From the IMG/VR virus record IMGVR_UViG_2609460125_000008: a stretch of 10,114 nt of DNA, one strand, 5' to 3'. Below, piece after piece: positions 826 through 6,737 of this stretch (positions are counted from its first letter, which is position 1; each line of letters starts with the position of its first letter). The notes beneath the pieces are model-generated. The model ran no database searches and was not told where the DNA came from. It saw only the letters and a program-made list of their open reading frames with translations. This stretch comes from a virus (lineage: Duplodnaviria > Heunggongvirae > Uroviricota > Caudoviricetes). The translations under genes were made by a program, and so were the position numbers.

Positions 826-1293
826 TTATTTCAGGCACTGAGTCCTGATGTACTCCTGAAGCATTCTCAATGCTGTCTGGTCGCTGATGATTCCGTCCCG
901 GATACCGAGAACGTTTCGTCCAGCAACTGGAGAGAGTTCGACGGTGGCATCATTGCCCATGCCGGAGGCGCTGGAGGTTTCGGCTGAGGATGGCACAGGG
1001 CATTTTCCTTTGACGAGCACCCGACCACCATTATCAAGCTTGCGCCGAAGAGCATCATTTTCAGCTTTCGCATCAGCTAACTCCTTCGTGTATTTAGCAT
1101 CGAGTGCATCAGCATCACGCTGGCGCTGCTGCATGTCAGTAATGGTTGCGTTCGCCAGCTTCAGTTCTCCGGCGTTTTTGTCGCGCTGCTCTTTGTAGGT
1201 AATGGCGTTATCACGGTAATGATTAACAGCCCATGACAGGCAGACGATGATGCAGATAACCAGAGCGGAGATAATCGCGGTGACTCTGCTCAT
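826..1293 (-). CDS. Rz: Rz i-spanin (inner-membrane spanin subunit)
   Basis: [34 protein letters not shown]...[18 protein letters not shown] closely matches lambda Rz as I recall it. N-terminal TMD plus coiled coil. Start placed at the ATG at 1291-1293, which overlaps the endolysin stop (ATGA), rather than the track start at 1308. Confidence 0.85.
867..1073 (-). CDS. Rz1: Rz1 o-spanin (outer-membrane lipoprotein), embedded in Rz in the +1 frame
   Basis: [21 protein letters not shown]... has a lipobox (VVGC) followed by a Pro-rich stretch [16 protein letters not shown], like lambda Rz1. Lies entirely inside Rz in a different frame. Confidence 0.7.
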
Positions 1294-1823
1294 TGATCTA
1301 TCCCCCAACAGGCTAATGCGCTTTCCTGGTCACGACGAATAACCTGTCCATAGCAGTTATTTGAACGTATGCGGCAATCGCGCCCAACATCTTTTATCCA
1401 CCAGCGAATCGCCTCGCATGCGCCCTTACGATCACCGGCATTCAGCCGCTTATAAAACGTCGACGGGAAACACTTACCGGGGCCAATGTTATAGGGGCAA
1501 AATGACGCTATACCCGCTTTCTGGGGTTCGGTCAGAGGTACTTTAATATTGCGCTCCACCCATGCCAGCGCCTTATCACGTTCAATAGCGTTAACCTGGT
1601 CACATTTTTCCTTCGACAGCTTCATTCCCGGTATGACAGGCTTACCATCCACCATTGTGGCACCACGACAGATGGTCCATATGCCAGAACCATCACGGTA
1701 TGCCGTTGTGTGATTACCCTCTTTTTCGTTCAGAAACTGGTCAAGTATCTGGGGAGCAGACGCGCCTGCGGCAATCAGCGCCAGAACAGCAGCCGACAGG
1801 CCGTATTTGATTTTTGCGCTCAT
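1290..1823 (-). CDS. R: SAR endolysin (T4-lysozyme-like muramidase with signal-anchor-release N-terminus)
   Basis: N-terminal Gly/Ala-rich weakly hydrophobic segment [17 protein letters not shown], then the catalytic spacing E-x8-D-x5-T ([16 protein letters not shown]). Same architecture as phage 21 R and P1 Lyz. Confidence 0.9.
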
Positions 1824-1888
1824 GGATATTTATCAGGATTTATCGGCAACAAATAACGAGCCAACTTATATACGCCTTTTAAGATAAG

Positions 1889-2518
1889 TCAGCCCCGGCT
1901 GGATCCAGTCATCAGGCTCTTTCTTAAAGGGGGAGTATTGAAATCACGAAGAAGAGCCTCCCGCACCGCAGCATCCATGTCTGCACCACTGGCAAGTGCT
2001 TCAATCTCTGCCGCCACCTGCAAATACCCCATGCAACGGCCAATGCGTTTCATAACTCTGGTGTTTTCGTCTTTCAGGCATCTGATAGCGAGATTAATAA
2101 TTTTCAGGCAGTGATGATGCGATGCCCGGACAGGTTTTCCGTTCTCATAAACGACGAACTCACCCTCTTCACAGGAAACCCTGAAAGGCCGATGGGGTTC
2201 CTGGTCTTTATCCGGTGCAGACGCAATAAAATCACTTTTATGCTCTTCCTCTCCGGCACTGTTAACCGTAATGACGTACTCAGGCCGCAGGTAAGCCGCC
2301 TCTTTTTCTGACAATGCGGCCGGTAAAAACTTTTCCTGCAAAAACTTCATAAAAGTCTCGTGAGCGACTTTGTGGCAGTAATCGTAAATCGCCGCATAAT
2401 GCTCATCGCGGCGTTTGTTTTCATCTTCAGAACTCACCAACGCCGACAATTTTTTATTAAGCTCAGTGATTTCATTTTCCAGGTGATTGAATCGCTGATT
2501 CATTTCTTCATGCTTCAT
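1889..2518 (-). CDS. Hypothetical acidic protein (209 aa) inserted between holin and endolysin; function unknown
   Basis: ATG lies 4 nt after the holin stop (TAA ATA ATG). Long clean ORF, no TMD or signal peptide, N-terminal coiled-coil-like segment, Cys/His cluster HHHCLKIINLAIRC. No family recognised from memory. Confidence 0.6.
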   Translation of the reverse strand: MKHEEMNQRFNHLENEITELNKKLSALVSSEDENKRRDEHYAAIYDYCHKVAHETFMKFLQEKFLPAALSEKEAAYLRPEYVITVNSAGEEEHKSDFIASAPDKDQEPHRPFRVSCEEGEFVVYENGKPVRASHHHCLKIINLAIRCLKDENTRVMKRIGRCMGYLQVAAEIEALASGADMDAAVREALLRDFNTPPLRKSLMTGSSRG

Positions 2519-2521
2519 TAT

Positions 2522-2737
2522 TTACTCTCCCCGTGCAGCCTTACGCTTGTCTTCTCTTATTTTGAAATACAGATTCGTCAGATAAGTCAGAAGCCCCAGA
2601 AGCAGACTTCCCAGCACACCAATCGCAGCCCACTGTGATGGCCTGACCTGATCCAACCACTGCAAAAACCAGTAGCCGGCACTGCCGGCGGAGGTGCCGT
2701 AGGCAATGCCCGTTGACATTTTGTCCATGGATTTCAT
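2522..2737 (-). CDS. S: Class II holin (pinholin, phage 21 S-like) with dual-start motif
   Basis: 71 aa, [31 protein letters not shown]...[13 protein letters not shown], near-identical to my recollection of S21. Two TMDs and a charged C-terminus; Met1/Met4 dual starts; GGAGGTGA Shine-Dalgarno upstream. Confidence 0.9.
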
Positions 2738-3029: not shown

Positions 3030-3104
<75 letters not shown>

Positions 3105-3107
3105 ATA

Positions 3108-3183
<76 letters not shown>

Positions 3184-3185
3184 GC

Positions 3186-3262
3186 TGGCCCACCACCGAG
3201 GACTCGAACCTCGCACCGTCAACTTAGAAGGTTGATGCTCTATCCGGATGAGCTAGTGGTGG
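3186..3262 (-). tRNA. tRNA-Arg (anticodon TCT)
   Basis: CCACCACTAGCTCATCCGGATAGAGCATCAACCTTCTAAGTTGACGGTGCGAGGTTCGAGTCCTCGGTGGTGGGCCA: acceptor stem CCACCAC/GTGGTGG, anticodon stem TCAAC/GTTGA, loop CTTCTAA, CCA end. Confidence 0.8.
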
Positions 3263-3263
3263 T

Positions 3264-3340
3264 TGGTGGCCCTTGCTGGACTTGAACCAGCGACCTGGCG
3301 ATTATGAGTCGCTCGCTCTGACCAACTGAGCTAAAGGGCC
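3264..3340 (-). tRNA. tRNA with CAT anticodon, most likely Ile2 (lysidine, ileX/ileZ-like) rather than Met
   Basis: GGCCCTTTAGCTCAGTTGGTCAGAGCGAGCGACTCATAATCGCCAGGTCGCTGGTTCAAGTCCAGCAAGGGCCACCA: anticodon loop CTCATAA; T-arm and acceptor closely resemble E. coli ileX as I recall it. Confidence 0.8.
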
Positions 3341-3453: not shown

Positions 3454-3539
3454 AAGCTGTGTGGCGAAGCAACCACTCTTAACAGAATATCCCGTTTTTT
3501 ACGTACGTAAAATATTTTCTAGAAAGTCGCCCCTTACCA
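3454..3539 (-). promoter_or_regulatory. Presumed late promoter pR' / qut region, containing a 16-bp perfect palindrome
   Basis: By position, between the Q stop and the tR'-like terminator. TTTTACGTACGTAAAA at 3497-3512 is a perfect palindrome. The -35/-10 hexamers could not be placed confidently. Confidence 0.35.
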
Positions 3540-3920
3540 TCAGGGATGTTCAATATATTTGTCCATTTCTAACCGGACACCCAACATCATCAACATTCCT
3601 TCCACCACCCCCTCGGCTTTTTGTAGCTTCTTTCCTATATAACCATCTGAGCATCCATGCTTCCGCGCCAGCGTCATGAATGTCATCCCAAACACGTAGT
3701 AGTCAACCAGCAAGTCATGTAGATCGTTGTTGTTCCGGTTAAGGCGGGCCATACACCCACATATAACCATCGCGTCATCGTCACAGCATTGCGGGCGGGA
3801 TTTTACTTTTGAAGGGATTAATCCCTTAAAACCGGCAGCAATGGACGACCAGGTCACATCCTCATGATTATTAGCCACCCACGCGCCCCAGCGCTCAAGA
3901 ACCTGCTGAATATCACGCAT
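3540..3920 (-). CDS. Q: Late-gene antiterminator Q (QuuD / phage 21-82 type)
   Basis: [60 protein letters not shown]... closely matches my recollection of E. coli QuuD (DLP12). Start placed at the MRDIQ Met; the track's upstream Met at 3956 is likely an extension. Confidence 0.85.
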
Positions 3921-4116
3921 CACTGTCTTTACCCCTGTCCCATCCACGATGAACAATCAGAACACCATCAACAATGGCGTGCCCTTTGCCCTCTTTATCT
4001 TCAGCATATTTTCTTACCGTGGCGCGATTACAGTTCAGCATTCGTGAAACTTCGGTCATATTACCTCGTGTCTGGATAAGCAGTTCCGGTATCGTTTGAA
4101 TTTTGACGCTCATCAA
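3913..4116 (-). CDS. ninH: NinH-like protein
   Basis: [59 protein letters not shown] resembles lambda NinH as I recall it. Lies immediately upstream of Q; GGAGAG Shine-Dalgarno upstream. Confidence 0.8.
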
Positions 4117-4207: not shown

Positions 4208-4465
4208 TCAGCGCAGCGCCTCCTGCACCAGTTTTTCAAACTTTCCGACTCTGGTTTCCAGCTCTGCCACACAGTCCACCAGCTCATCTACTGCTTTCTG
4301 TGCGCGATGCTTCGCCTGCATCAGTTCCCGAAGCGCGGGTACCATATCTTTACGGATAGCATCTTTTGTTATGCCCGTTTTTTCGAGTTGTTCAGCATGA
4401 CGCAGCATTTCCTGCGCGTGTTTACGCAATTGTTCAGGGGTAAAAGTCATTGTCTGGTTGTTCAA
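4208..4465 (-). CDS. Hypothetical 85-aa helical protein in the nin-region position
   Basis: ATG overlaps the helicase stop (ATGA), suggesting translational coupling. Sequence is charged and helical; no family recognised. Confidence 0.5.
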   Translation of the reverse strand: MNNQTMTFTPEQLRKHAQEMLRHAEQLEKTGITKDAIRKDMVPALRELMQAKHRAQKAVDELVDCVAELETRVGKFEKLVQEALR

Positions 4466-5853
4466 AAGAAACGCTCCATCTTACTGCTGTCAGTTCGTTT
4501 ATTACTGTATCTGCGCGGATTGCCGGGCTTCATGGGAGTGGAAAGCACCCGTGCACTTTCCTGGTCCACAGGCAGAAAATGTCCGTTATAAAAACGCCGG
4601 TAAATCGTTCCCAGAGAACCGTTACGTTGTTTCGTGATATTGATTTCTGCGATGCCCCTGGCCTGCGTATCCGGGTTGTACACTTCATCCCTGTAAAGCA
4701 TCAGAATGATGTCTGCATCCGCCTCTATTTCTCCGGAATTTTTCAGGTCTGAGTTCATGGGACGTTTATTGGGTCTGGACTCCACACCGCGGGAGAGCTG
4801 GCTCAGCGCAATCAACGGAAAACCACCGGATTTTGCCAGGCCTTTAAGCCCCTTTGAGATTTCACCCACGGCAAGGTCATGACGCCCCGTGGTTCGGGTT
4901 TTTATCAGCCCGAGATAATCAACCACCACCAGCGCCGTTTCCGGATATTTAATCAGGTGGTGTTTCGTTGTTGCGCATATCTCATCAATGGCCAGGTTCG
5001 CCTGGTCCACCATCCAGATATTGCGCCCGGTCATCCGCCCCACCCCTTGTGAGAAACGCGTCCAGTCTTCATCTTCAAAGTGAGCCACAGATTTCAGGCG
5101 TGATACTGGCATCCCTCCAGCCGCAGACACCATACGTTCACCAATCTGGATGTTCGCCATCTCCATGGTGAACAGAAGCACACCATGCCCCTGCTCAGTC
5201 ACCTTGTCGATGATGTCCAGCGCAAGTTCGGTTTTCCCCATCGAAGGACGGGCGGCAATGAATACCAGGTCTCCGGGCTCCATACCGCCTGTTTTTGCGT
5301 CCAGTTCATCAATACCGGTCATCAACGTCCTGGATTTCTCCAGCCCCTGATTCCGGCATTCAACACGCTCAACCACTTCCGGAAGCACATCATCAATATG
5401 TACCGGCTGAATGACGCCCTTTCCTGTCGACAGTGTGACCATCATGTTCTGCGCATCCTTCAGGGCATCTTCAGCTGCTTCACAGGTATGCGCATCACGT
5501 AATTTCTGCAGCGCCTCATTCAGTGTTTTTTCTGCATCGCGCAGTGCGGCATTGCGCCGCAACGCTGCAACATAGTGCTCCAGTGAAGACTTCACCCAGG
5601 TTTTACGCCCGGTATCAGTAATCACCGGGGCAAGTTCCGGCATCTCATTACACAACAGCACGGGGTCAATCACTCCTGAAACACGGGCCTGTCTGCAGAT
5701 GCCTGTATAGATATCCTGATACGCTCGTACAGAAAAAACGTCCGCTGGCAGTGTGGCCAGAATATCCATCACTTCAGGATCTGCTCCGCGCAGAAAGAAC
5801 GCGCCGATGACAGCGCCTTCAAGGTCATCGTTACGCCATACTGGAGTTGTCAT
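4462..5853 (-). CDS. DnaB-family replicative DNA helicase (P22 gene 12-like)
   Basis: 463 aa. DnaB N-terminal domain, Walker A FIAARPSMGKTELALDI, Walker B-like LVVVDYLGLI, C-terminal RecA-like fold motifs. Start overlaps the upstream gene's stop (ATGA). Confidence 0.9.
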   Translation of the reverse strand: MTTPVWRNDDLEGAVIGAFFLRGADPEVMDILATLPADVFSVRAYQDIYTGICRQARVSGVIDPVLLCNEMPELAPVITDTGRKTWVKSSLEHYVAALRRNAALRDAEKTLNEALQKLRDAHTCEAAEDALKDAQNMMVTLSTGKGVIQPVHIDDVLPEVVERVECRNQGLEKSRTLMTGIDELDAKTGGMEPGDLVFIAARPSMGKTELALDIIDKVTEQGHGVLLFTMEMANIQIGERMVSAAGGMPVSRLKSVAHFEDEDWTRFSQGVGRMTGRNIWMVDQANLAIDEICATTKHHLIKYPETALVVVDYLGLIKTRTTGRHDLAVGEISKGLKGLAKSGGFPLIALSQLSRGVESRPNKRPMNSDLKNSGEIEADADIILMLYRDEVYNPDTQARGIAEINITKQRNGSLGTIYRRFYNGHFLPVDQESARVLSTPMKPGNPRRYSNKRTDSSKMERFF

Positions 5854-6737
5854 GCAGCCACACCTCTGATACGAGAACGGTAACTGGGCCAGTTAAACGA
5901 CAACCAGTTGCGTCCCCCGTCTGTGATCCTGTCGGCAATTCGGGGACTGATGAACGCCCACAACTCTTCCGGTGAGAGGTTACTGATCAGAATGGTGGGC
6001 AAGATACTTTCGTACCTGGCGTTGATAATTTCCTGCAAAATAGCCATTTCAGCCGCGCTGCCAAACTGAACGCCAACTTCGTCGATGATCAGCAAATCCA
6101 TTGACGCATAACGCTCAATAACTTCATCCGCTGTTTTTTCGCTGTCATTCCGCCAGCAATTTTTCACAGCACGGGTAAGGCGCATCACGTCGGTGATCTC
6201 CACACTGGCCAGATAGTTACGGATGATGTGTTTTGCCATAGCCACAGCCAGATGATTTTTTCCGGTACCACAACTGCCGGTCATAACAAGACTGGTACCG
6301 TTCTCCAGCATATCTGGCCAGTTCTCCGCATAGCGGCGACAGGCCGCAAGATTTCTGGCTGCGCCAGGATTAACCTCCAGATAATTATCAAACTCGCAGT
6401 CCCGAAAACGCAGGGCAATTCCGGCGTTATCAGTCAGCTCTTCCGCCTTGATGGACGACAGCTCCATGGTCAAATCGTTGGCCTCAGCGATTAAGCAGTC
6501 AGGGCAGCATGAAATTTCTTCTCTGTCCTCGCCATTACGATCGCTCCACACCAGTATATGCGTGTGATATTCGCCATGTTTTTCGCAATATCCGCGACCT
6601 TCACGCATCAGGCAGGAACGATAAGGCCATGGCTTTTCGCCCTTCTGAGCAAATGCAATCTCTGCCCGTAACTCATCCATTCGCGCCTGTAGTCTTTTTT
6701 GTTGTTCACGCAGGTTAAACGTCATCATCGCTGTCAC
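5850..6737 (-). CDS. DnaC/IstB-like AAA+ ATPase (helicase loader) with Cys/His-rich N-terminal extension
   Basis: Walker A LVMTGSCGTGKNHLAVAMA, Walker B DLLIIDEVG. N-terminal roughly 90 aa contain C-x8-C...H-x3-H-x-H...CC-x2-C, a possible zinc-binding module. Confidence 0.8.
   Translation of the reverse strand: MTAMMTFNLREQQKRLQARMDELRAEIAFAQKGEKPWPYRSCLMREGRGYCEKHGEYHTHILVWSDRNGEDREEISCCPDCLIAEANDLTMELSSIKAEELTDNAGIALRFRDCEFDNYLEVNPGAARNLAACRRYAENWPDMLENGTSLVMTGSCGTGKNHLAVAMAKHIIRNYLASVEITDVMRLTRAVKNCWRNDSEKTADEVIERYASMDLLIIDEVGVQFGSAAEMAILQEIINARYESILPTILISNLSPEELWAFISPRIADRITDGGRNWLSFNWPSYRSRIRGVAA

Follow-up and report, generated by a model that had tools for sequence, protein, structure and literature searches.

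The question raised by this locus is what is encoded by a 209-amino-acid (aa) open reading frame (ORF) that sits between the holin gene S and the endolysin gene R in IMG/VR virus record IMGVR_UViG_2609460125_000008. The whole 10,114-nucleotide (nt) stretch of DNA that was analysed is referred to here as the window. Judging from its sequence relationships, the ORF is very probably a short, DUF1327-less form of the PHROG 1085 or long-YdfR family, whose members are uncharacterised proteins of lambdoid prophages. Both the exact protein and the family are already catalogued, though uncharacterised, and the window copy is a degenerate member of that family and not a new kind of protein. The core of the locus consists of the following features.

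1889..2518, minus strand: the 209-aa ORF, with an ATG start (open-reading-frame list)
2522..2737, minus strand: S21-type class II holin (pinholin), 71 aa, with an MKSMDK dual-start N-terminus (PF04971, E = 2.3e-34; PHROG holin families)
2525..2532, minus strand: Shine-Dalgarno sequence GGGGAGAG of the 209-aa ORF, within the 3' end of the holin gene (read by eye from the sequence)
1290..1823, minus strand: phage lysozyme of the signal-anchor-release (SAR) endolysin type, 177 aa (PF00959, E = 5e-24; PHROG 7, endolysin)

These coordinates and the PF04971 and PF00959 neighbours bear out a first-pass annotation of the window, which had described a tightly packed ORF between a pinholin and a SAR endolysin, ending 65 nt before the endolysin start. 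The Pfam name of PF04971 is 'Bacteriophage P21 holin S'. On the minus strand the holin stop codon TAA (2524-2522) is followed by a 3-nt spacer, ATA, and then by the ATG of the 209-aa ORF (2518-2516). The N-terminus of the lysozyme, as read from its translation, is Gly/Ala-rich and hydrophobic, which is typical of a SAR endolysin.

The same annotation had recognised no family for the protein, and this did not survive profile comparison. The window protein matched PHROG 1085, a family of unknown function, with 249 bits and an E-value of 1.2e-73, aa 1-209 being aligned to positions 117-288 of a 296-position profile; the first ~116 profile positions, which correspond to the DUF1327 part, were left uncovered. 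A search of 5.8 billion proteins returned 132 homologous clusters, and all those that had a source name came from E. coli or Shigella. Many of the homologues are 268-333 aa long, are labelled 'YdfR family' or 'DUF1327 domain-containing', and carry PF07041 at residues 1-100 (113-147 bits at the N-termini of P0004, P0073, P0082, P0090 and P0115). The window protein aligns to what remains of these long forms after DUF1327, with identities reaching 82% across 94% of the query, and PF07041 itself had no match in the window protein even at E<=1 (gathering score 25 bits). By these alignments the window protein is the non-DUF1327 half of long YdfR-type proteins, with its own start codon placed at the coiled coil.

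The relation to the named members of the family can be stated more exactly. The long YdfR forms (gp05 of Stx2-converting phage 86, YP_794052.1, 268 aa; P0090 and P0004, 296-333 aa) have a homologous coiled-coil module and C-domain and occupy the same slot, directly after an S21-type holin and before the lysozyme gene, whereas the window protein has no N-terminal DUF1327 and has lost its tail by a frameshift. YdfR of the K-12 prophage Qin (P76160, 103 aa, PF07041) is also found in this slot, between essQ (holin) and rrrQ (lysozyme), the gene order being essQ-ydfR-rrrQ. It has no sequence similarity to the window protein and represents the other half of the long proteins, its domain being the usual fusion partner of the C-domain of the window protein. 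The first-pass annotation had mentioned a YdfR or DUF1327 gene in the same slot; this was correct, and the connection is one of shared family, which is more than a coincidence of position.

The C-domain extends beyond Escherichia and Shigella. An exhaustive profile search of 1.84 billion (1.84e9) representative proteins gave only 40 clusters, and with one genome for each of 185,579 species only Escherichia and Shigella were matched. The C-domain is also present in Salmonella enterica, in a diverse branch of at least 169 clusters; that of the window protein is 42% identical to its counterpart in Salmonella P0170 (E = 5e-19). As their N-domain the Salmonella proteins have a DUF1327 that has diverged (hhalign probability 92%, E = 7e-7). 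The Salmonella prophage 'hypothetical proteins' (P0170, 262 aa; P0180, 296 aa) have the C-domain, the invariant tail and a late-operon location beside the lysis genes in common with the E. coli-type family. They differ from the window protein in their divergent DUF1327-like N-domain, in being encoded upstream of a PF16080 holin, and in the convergent small ORF that follows them. The family is thus restricted to Escherichia/Shigella and Salmonella, and in its widespread architecture a DUF1327-like N-domain is followed by a variable linker and by the C-domain. Both genera thus keep the two-domain architecture, and the DUF1327-less form of the window is derived.

We calculated pairwise ratios of nonsynonymous to synonymous substitution rates (dN/dS) for five family members. 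The values were 0.16-0.37, and they were lower than 0.5 in each third of the gene, which indicates that genes of the PHROG 1085 family are under purifying selection. Together with the more than 130 homologous clusters, these values indicate that the 209-aa ORF belongs to a real gene and is no chance ORF. Homologous DNA covering some part of the gene was found in 1066 of 5426 complete E. coli genomes (~20%), including Stx-converting phages; in 79 of the 1066 at least 80% of the gene was covered, and in 6 the identity was at least 99%. Many complete E. coli genomes have an unannotated stretch of ~166 nt matching only the 3' end of the gene (query 466-630, ~84% identity), and these stretches may be remnants of a gene that was deleted or replaced in the slot.

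The C-terminal module of the 'long YdfR family' is a working definition made in this analysis. Models were obtained with AlphaFold2 (AF2), whose per-residue confidence is given as the predicted local distance difference test (pLDDT). Three parts can be distinguished.

2327..2518, minus strand: N-module, aa 1-64, helical hairpin or coiled coil (AF2 helices aa 3-28 and 31-64)
2189..2326, minus strand: acidic variable linker, aa 65-110, predicted to be disordered (pLDDT <50 for aa 64-110; indel-rich alignments)
1928..2188, minus strand: conserved C-domain, aa 111-197, three-stranded beta meander and three helices, with a GRxMGxLQxAAE motif (conserved columns, AF2)

The N-terminal coiled-coil-like stretch named in the first-pass annotation is reproduced by the model, in which the helix of aa 3-28 has pLDDT 75-84 over aa 1-20, and the 3-4 spacing of the hydrophobic residues F10, L13, I17, L20, L24 and L27 is consistent with a coiled coil. 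In the relatives P0118 and P0152 the N-module is joined to other C-terminal domains. The AF2 model of the whole window protein has a pLDDT of 53, with the beta meander at 113-130 and the three helices within 134-193. For the intact C-domain of the relative P0121, modelled from an alignment that included the Salmonella branch, the core reached pLDDT 70-90 (overall 67) and the conserved C-terminal tail had low pLDDT. All core columns of the family are present in the window protein (F112, V114, K128, H136, I145, M156, G160, R161, L166, Q167, A169 and E171), and it contains the core motif F.V..G.....ENGK...SH.H...AI..L...M.RIGRxMGxLQxAAEIE.

Neither a transmembrane segment (maximum 19-residue Kyte-Doolittle value 0.76) nor a signal peptide was found in the 209-aa protein, in agreement with the first-pass annotation, and the protein is accordingly predicted to be soluble and cytoplasmic. 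The description of the protein as acidic holds in part: the whole protein is mildly so, with an isoelectric point (pI) of 6.1 and 35 Asp and Glu against 30 Lys and Arg residues, and the linker has a pI of 4.7, whereas the C-domain has a pI of 8.9. Its Cys/His-rich C-terminal half (GRCMGY), which had been singled out as a notable feature, is not a family property. C162 is replaced by S or A in Salmonella relatives (GRSMG, GRAMG) and H134 by S, R or other residues (PTSEH), C137 and C147 vary even within E. coli, and H136 alone is retained broadly. A Cys/His metal site was rejected, as the set of ligands is not conserved in the Salmonella branch.

Searches for a characterised relative, which by the first-pass annotation would refute its reading if the homology were clear and the function mundane, gave none by sequence, profile or fold. 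Pfam and NCBIfam profiles matched the window protein with coiled-coil noise only, and the PHROGs matched were families of unknown function, also for the partner modules and for the convergent genes described below. No homology of the window protein to holins, endolysins, spanins, antiholins or lysis regulators was seen in Pfam, PHROG or NCBIfam, and none of the PADLOC-DB defence families matched the window protein, P0004 or P0127 at E<=0.1. Searching the PDB by sequence and profile gave nothing of substance, matches with E <0.05 being absent and the remainder being coiled-coil artefacts, and Foldseek against BFVD and the PDB gave nothing at E<=1e-3. In the literature, DUF1327 is mentioned in passing in one paper and searches for essQ/rrrQ returned nothing relevant; the portions available of a survey of Stx-phage lysis cassettes do not discuss the slot gene.

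The window allele differs from its relatives at its 3' end, where two features are relevant.

1929..1933, minus strand: frameshift site, with a C5 run in the window against CCNCCC (Pro-Pro codons) in relatives (DNA alignment)
1866..1928, minus strand: out-of-frame relic of the ancestral C-terminal tail, FKKEPDDWIQPGLTYLKRRI followed by a stop codon (three-frame translation)

Alignment with the DNA of four relatives (L002, L004, L005 and L006) shows a deletion of 1 nt, CC-CCC against CCNCCC. The tail FKKEPDDWIQPGLTYLKRRI is intact in frame 2 down to the ancestral stop codon TAA (1868-1866). Relatives end in ...FNTPPFKKxPxxWxQPGLTYLKxRI and the window protein in ...FNTPPLRKSLMTGSSRG, its last 12 residues (LRKSLMTGSSRG) being a product of the frameshift and not native; the conserved tail PPFK(K)xPxxWxxPGxxYLKxR is therefore absent from it, with LRKSLMTGSSRG in its place. 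The window allele is FRAMESHIFTED. Few parts of the family are as well conserved as the lost tail, whose W, P, G, Y and L are nearly invariant in both the E. coli and the Salmonella branches. The allele corresponds to WP_001300760.1, which is present in a few complete E. coli genomes, and the exact protein is found on at least 1000 contigs as 'bacteriophage protein [Shigella flexneri]' or 'MULTISPECIES hypothetical protein [Shigella]'. S. flexneri is accordingly the most probable origin of the window. A sequencing error was ruled out as the source of the frameshift by the occurrence of the same allele in independent complete genomes and on these contigs.

The window copy is fixed in Shigella flexneri-type defective prophages, and the near-identical cassette of locus L001 belongs to a prophage whose capsid, portal and terminase genes are frameshifted. 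The window itself has fragments of IS3-family transposases at both ends (79-374 and 9684-10114). Downstream of the spanin gene Rz it has only a 60-aa ORF that has no family match (441-623), and no virion genes. Given the IS3 fragments at both ends and the lack of virion genes after Rz, the window prophage is a remnant, which is consistent with the genomes of Shigella, rich in insertion sequences (IS). The loss of an invariant tail in such a remnant suggests that the window allele is, on balance, impaired or non-functional. Other frameshifted or split members of the family are the L005 pseudogene, L030, P0074 and P0130.

The slot between S and R was then compared across relatives. In the following, X denotes a homologue of the 209-aa ORF and Y a small ORF on the opposite strand after X. 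Among ~90 gene-anchored loci of the E. coli type, the order is always holin, X, lysozyme, Rz. In 83 of 87 loci only 0-4 nt separate the holin gene from X. The distance from X to the lysozyme gene varies, with one range of 36-65 nt and another of 438-1225 nt, and in the second of these Y lies between the two genes. Of the architectures in the 90 X-anchored loci, the N-module with the C-domain is seen in ~45 and DUF1327 with the N-module and the C-domain in ~33, followed by DUF1327 with the C-domain (10) and by a split DUF1327 gene preceding an N-module and C-domain gene (3). Y is present in ~25 of the 87 loci, where it is convergent to X (for example at 3654-3968, 3493-3807 and 4809-5126 on the minus strand of L002, L003 and L093, respectively), and is absent from ~60 of the 87 and from the window. 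Its copies belong to PHROG 1853, 10490 or 2572, which are families of unknown function; one copy is labelled DUF1823 by PhiR12. In Salmonella the homologue lies in the late operon between Q, with HicAB nearby, and the PF16080 holin, upstream of that holin and separated from it by a convergent ORF on the opposite strand. One Salmonella Y is 44% identical to gp06 of Stx2 phage 86, both being PHROG 1853, and X and Y may form a two-gene module. A Gp49/HTH pair similar to that of the window is found near the Salmonella homologue.

In a second, holin-anchored sample of 76 loci having both holin and lysozyme, the slot was empty in 29, with S and R overlapping. It held a DUF1327-only gene in 41 and a longer DUF1327 form, or DUF1327 plus Y, in 6, so that a DUF1327-family gene was present in 47 of the 76. 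A filled slot is the majority state, and the suggestion that the cassette is normally S-R-Rz was overstated. Since many related cassettes are without it, the slot gene is dispensable for lysis. Absence of the ORF from related prophages, which the first-pass annotation had said would refute its reading, is partly borne out by these cassettes. The family may be called a widespread "known unknown", being represented in ~20% of complete E. coli genomes, with a DUF1327-family gene in ~60% of the sampled S21-type cassettes.

As for function, the reading that we favour is that the product would be a soluble, non-enzymatic cytoplasmic protein, made late together with the holin and the endolysin and acting through protein-protein binding. 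The coiled coil would let the protein associate with itself or with other proteins, and the tail, conserved and flexible, would serve as a docking motif. A binding or adaptor protein is laid out in this way, with a coiled coil and a conserved C-terminal tail that is apparently flexible, and a near-invariant tail with low pLDDT is what is expected for a docking motif. That the protein is a non-enzymatic binding protein seems fairly probable. Its pathway might be the one shared with DUF1327 and YdfR, that is, modulation of host RNase E, of RNA turnover or of the fate of late mRNA around lysis, and a direct role in membrane lysis would be less likely than this. A 2026 study reported that in bacterial adenylate cyclase two-hybrid (BACTH) and pull-down assays YdfR binds RNase E, at the catalytic N-terminal half of the enzyme, and that RNA co-purifies with YdfR (PMC13232886). 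As the C-domain is fused to DUF1327 in two genera and YdfR is a reported RNase E binder, the RNase E or RNA pathway is the likeliest of those considered, although it can be put forward only as a possible, rather doubtful one. Taken as a whole, with a DUF1327-less family member, a late binding protein, the RNase E or RNA pathway and an impaired allele, this reading is tentative and in our estimate falls somewhat short of an even chance.

Among known proteins, phiKZ Dip, T7 gp0.7 and T4 Srd modulate RNase E or the degradosome, and virulent phages make them as early or middle proteins. The window family would be another one that targets RNase E, provided that the DUF1327 link holds. It has no homology to these proteins, lies in the late operon of temperate phages, and is linked to RNase E only via its fusion partner.

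Several points weigh against the favoured reading. The RNase E binding and RNA co-purification of YdfR belong to DUF1327 and not to the window module, the interaction was seen by BACTH and pull-down only, and overexpression of YdfR changed few transcripts (PMC13232886). The window protein is without DUF1327, so its link to RNase E is one of guilt by fusion. Short forms are common and, among those compared, have dN/dS of 0.16-0.37, which suggests that the C-domain can act without DUF1327 in cis. Since the models have pLDDT of 53 and 67, the term non-enzymatic is an argument from absence of evidence, and the invariant H136, R161, Q167 and E171 could form an unrecognised active site. As for impairment, the frameshifted allele persists on the contigs noted above without further disruption, which is explained equally well by clonal descent.

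The closest rival to the RNase E or RNA pathway is that the protein is a cytoplasmic lysis-timing regulator, made in fixed proportion to the pinholin, which would bind the C-terminal tail of the pinholin or the unreleased SAR endolysin and delay or sharpen triggering. P1 LydB and T4 RIII are small soluble proteins that are encoded beside the holin gene and act by binding the holin, and they offer a functional analogy, with no sequence or fold similarity detected. The position of the gene fits such a role: in E. coli-type loci it always comes directly after the S21-type holin, nearly always with the short gap given above and with its Shine-Dalgarno sequence within the holin gene, while by contrast its distance to R is variable (36-1225 nt). 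The family also lies beside lysis genes in both genera, and a soluble protein with a coiled coil is suited to binding. In Salmonella, however, the homologue is upstream of a PF16080 holin with an opposite-strand ORF between them, which leaves neither specificity for a holin type nor translational coupling; coupling to the pinholin as a sign of a holin partner is weakened by these loci, and the comparison with LydB and RIII suffers in the same way. Adjacency is in any case weak evidence, as any gene that a lambdoid phage has between Q and the terminase genes is by default a neighbour of the lysis genes, and the slot is empty in 29 of the 76 cassettes even though their holins are near-identical. 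There is, moreover, no similarity to known antiholin or lysis-regulator families. We regard this explanation as unlikely, yet close behind the RNase E or RNA pathway. A moron of the late operon engaged in conflict, through superinfection exclusion, anti-defence or as a counter-partner of the convergent Y, is less probable still. Lysis timing, an anti-defence or superinfection-exclusion moron and a late-expressed effector had been the candidate roles named in the first-pass annotation. It would account for the modular shuffling of N-terminal, middle and C-terminal parts, for the narrow taxonomic range and patchy presence, for the location, with Q on one side and the lysis and packaging genes on the other, which is the classical moron region, and for the recurrent convergent partner (PHROG 1853, with E. 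coli and Salmonella copies 44% identical). It is opposed by the lack of any PADLOC match, by the absence of Y from the window and from the larger share of the loci, and by dN/dS values that give no sign of arms-race positive selection at the level of the whole gene; unlike typical morons, the window gene is translationally coupled to S and lacks both a promoter and a terminator for itself.

That the whole family is functionless filler, a decaying ORF hitch-hiking in the lysis cassette, has very little probability. The window allele and the other members listed above are indeed frameshifted or split, and the slot is often empty, but each third of the gene has a low dN/dS, both the C-domain and the tail have been conserved in Escherichia and Salmonella, with 42% identity and invariant motifs, and the two-domain architecture is kept across genera. 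Such evidence of selection and conservation largely excludes this reading. A broader proposal, which we consider improbable, is that DUF1327 and the C-domain together define an unrecognised class of late proteins of temperate phages, which would either dock to RNase E (through DUF1327 in cis, or in trans via the shared coiled coil), and so link the lysis cassette with the RNA metabolism of the host, or be new cytoplasmic regulators of pinholin and SAR endolysin. If it were true, either role would influence the timing of lysis, and hence the release of Shiga toxin (Stx) in Stx phages with intact copies. More generally, phage burst and Shiga-toxin release would be affected if the family tunes lysis timing or the stability of late mRNA. 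The YdfR-RNase E link of the favoured reading gives a concrete handle for testing the role of the family; the window copy adds little to this, its chief value being that of a natural tail-less variant.

The remaining features of the Q-dependent late operon, to which the 209-aa ORF belongs, are as follows.

826..1308, minus strand: Rz i-spanin (PF03245, E = 5e-30)
867-1073, minus strand: Rz1 o-spanin, embedded in Rz (lipobox-like LIMVVGC in the embedded ORF)
3540..3956, minus strand: Q antiterminator, start of the late operon (PF06530, E = 6e-54)
3030..3340, minus strand: array of four tRNA genes (Gly-TCC, Thr-TGT, Arg-TCT and one with a CAT anticodon) between Q and the holin (ARAGORN and Rfam tRNA matches)

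Consensus scans of the minus strand found no promoter-like or credible terminator-like site separating S, the 209-aa ORF and R, which makes their co-transcription plausible. A GC-rich hairpin GCCGGCAGTGCCGGC followed by a T-rich tract TACTGGTTTT occurs at 2675-2689 (minus strand) within the coding sequence of the holin. The region has 5 terminator-like sites against a shuffle expectation of 3.6, and the hairpin inside the holin gene probably matches by chance. Just downstream of Q, at 3379-3350 (minus strand), lies a promoter-like site that could be pR'. The tRNA array, which is on the late transcript, corresponds in position to the tRNA clusters of Stx phages, and its CAT-anticodon tRNA is annotated as tRNA-Ile by RefSeq in locus L001. 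No signal of foreign or moron origin was seen in the base composition (GC 0.44-0.52).

The rest of the window contains further recognisable elements, from the IS fragments to an early region.

9684-10022: HTH_Tnp_1 ORF, IS3-family
79-213: C-terminal transposase fragment, IS3-family
8482-8569, minus strand: C4 antisense RNA, 74.8 bits (Rfam, above gathering score)
8594-8670, minus strand: isrK Hfq-binding small RNA (sRNA), 58.1 bits (Rfam, above gathering score)
7864-8298: gene of a Rha-family regulator (PF09669), with C4 and isrK just upstream
~8746-9075, plus strand: Gp49-like ORF (PF05973, RelE/HigB-type)
9065-9373, plus strand: HTH_3 (XRE) ORF, overlapping the Gp49-like ORF
3913-4116, 4462-6737 and 9415-9591, minus strand: NinH, DnaB-type helicase, DnaC/IstB-like loader and NinE (lambdoid nin-region and replication genes)

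The group of C4, isrK and Rha looks like an antisense-controlled antirepressor module of the P1/P7 type inside a lambdoid remnant, and the Gp49-like and HTH_3 ORFs look like a toxin-antitoxin pair. The 224-aa ORF at 8401-9075 has its PF05973 domain at aa 131-218 only, so that translation probably begins at an internal start. NinE is located beyond the toxin-antitoxin-like and sRNA modules, which suggests rearrangement or mosaicism of the early region.

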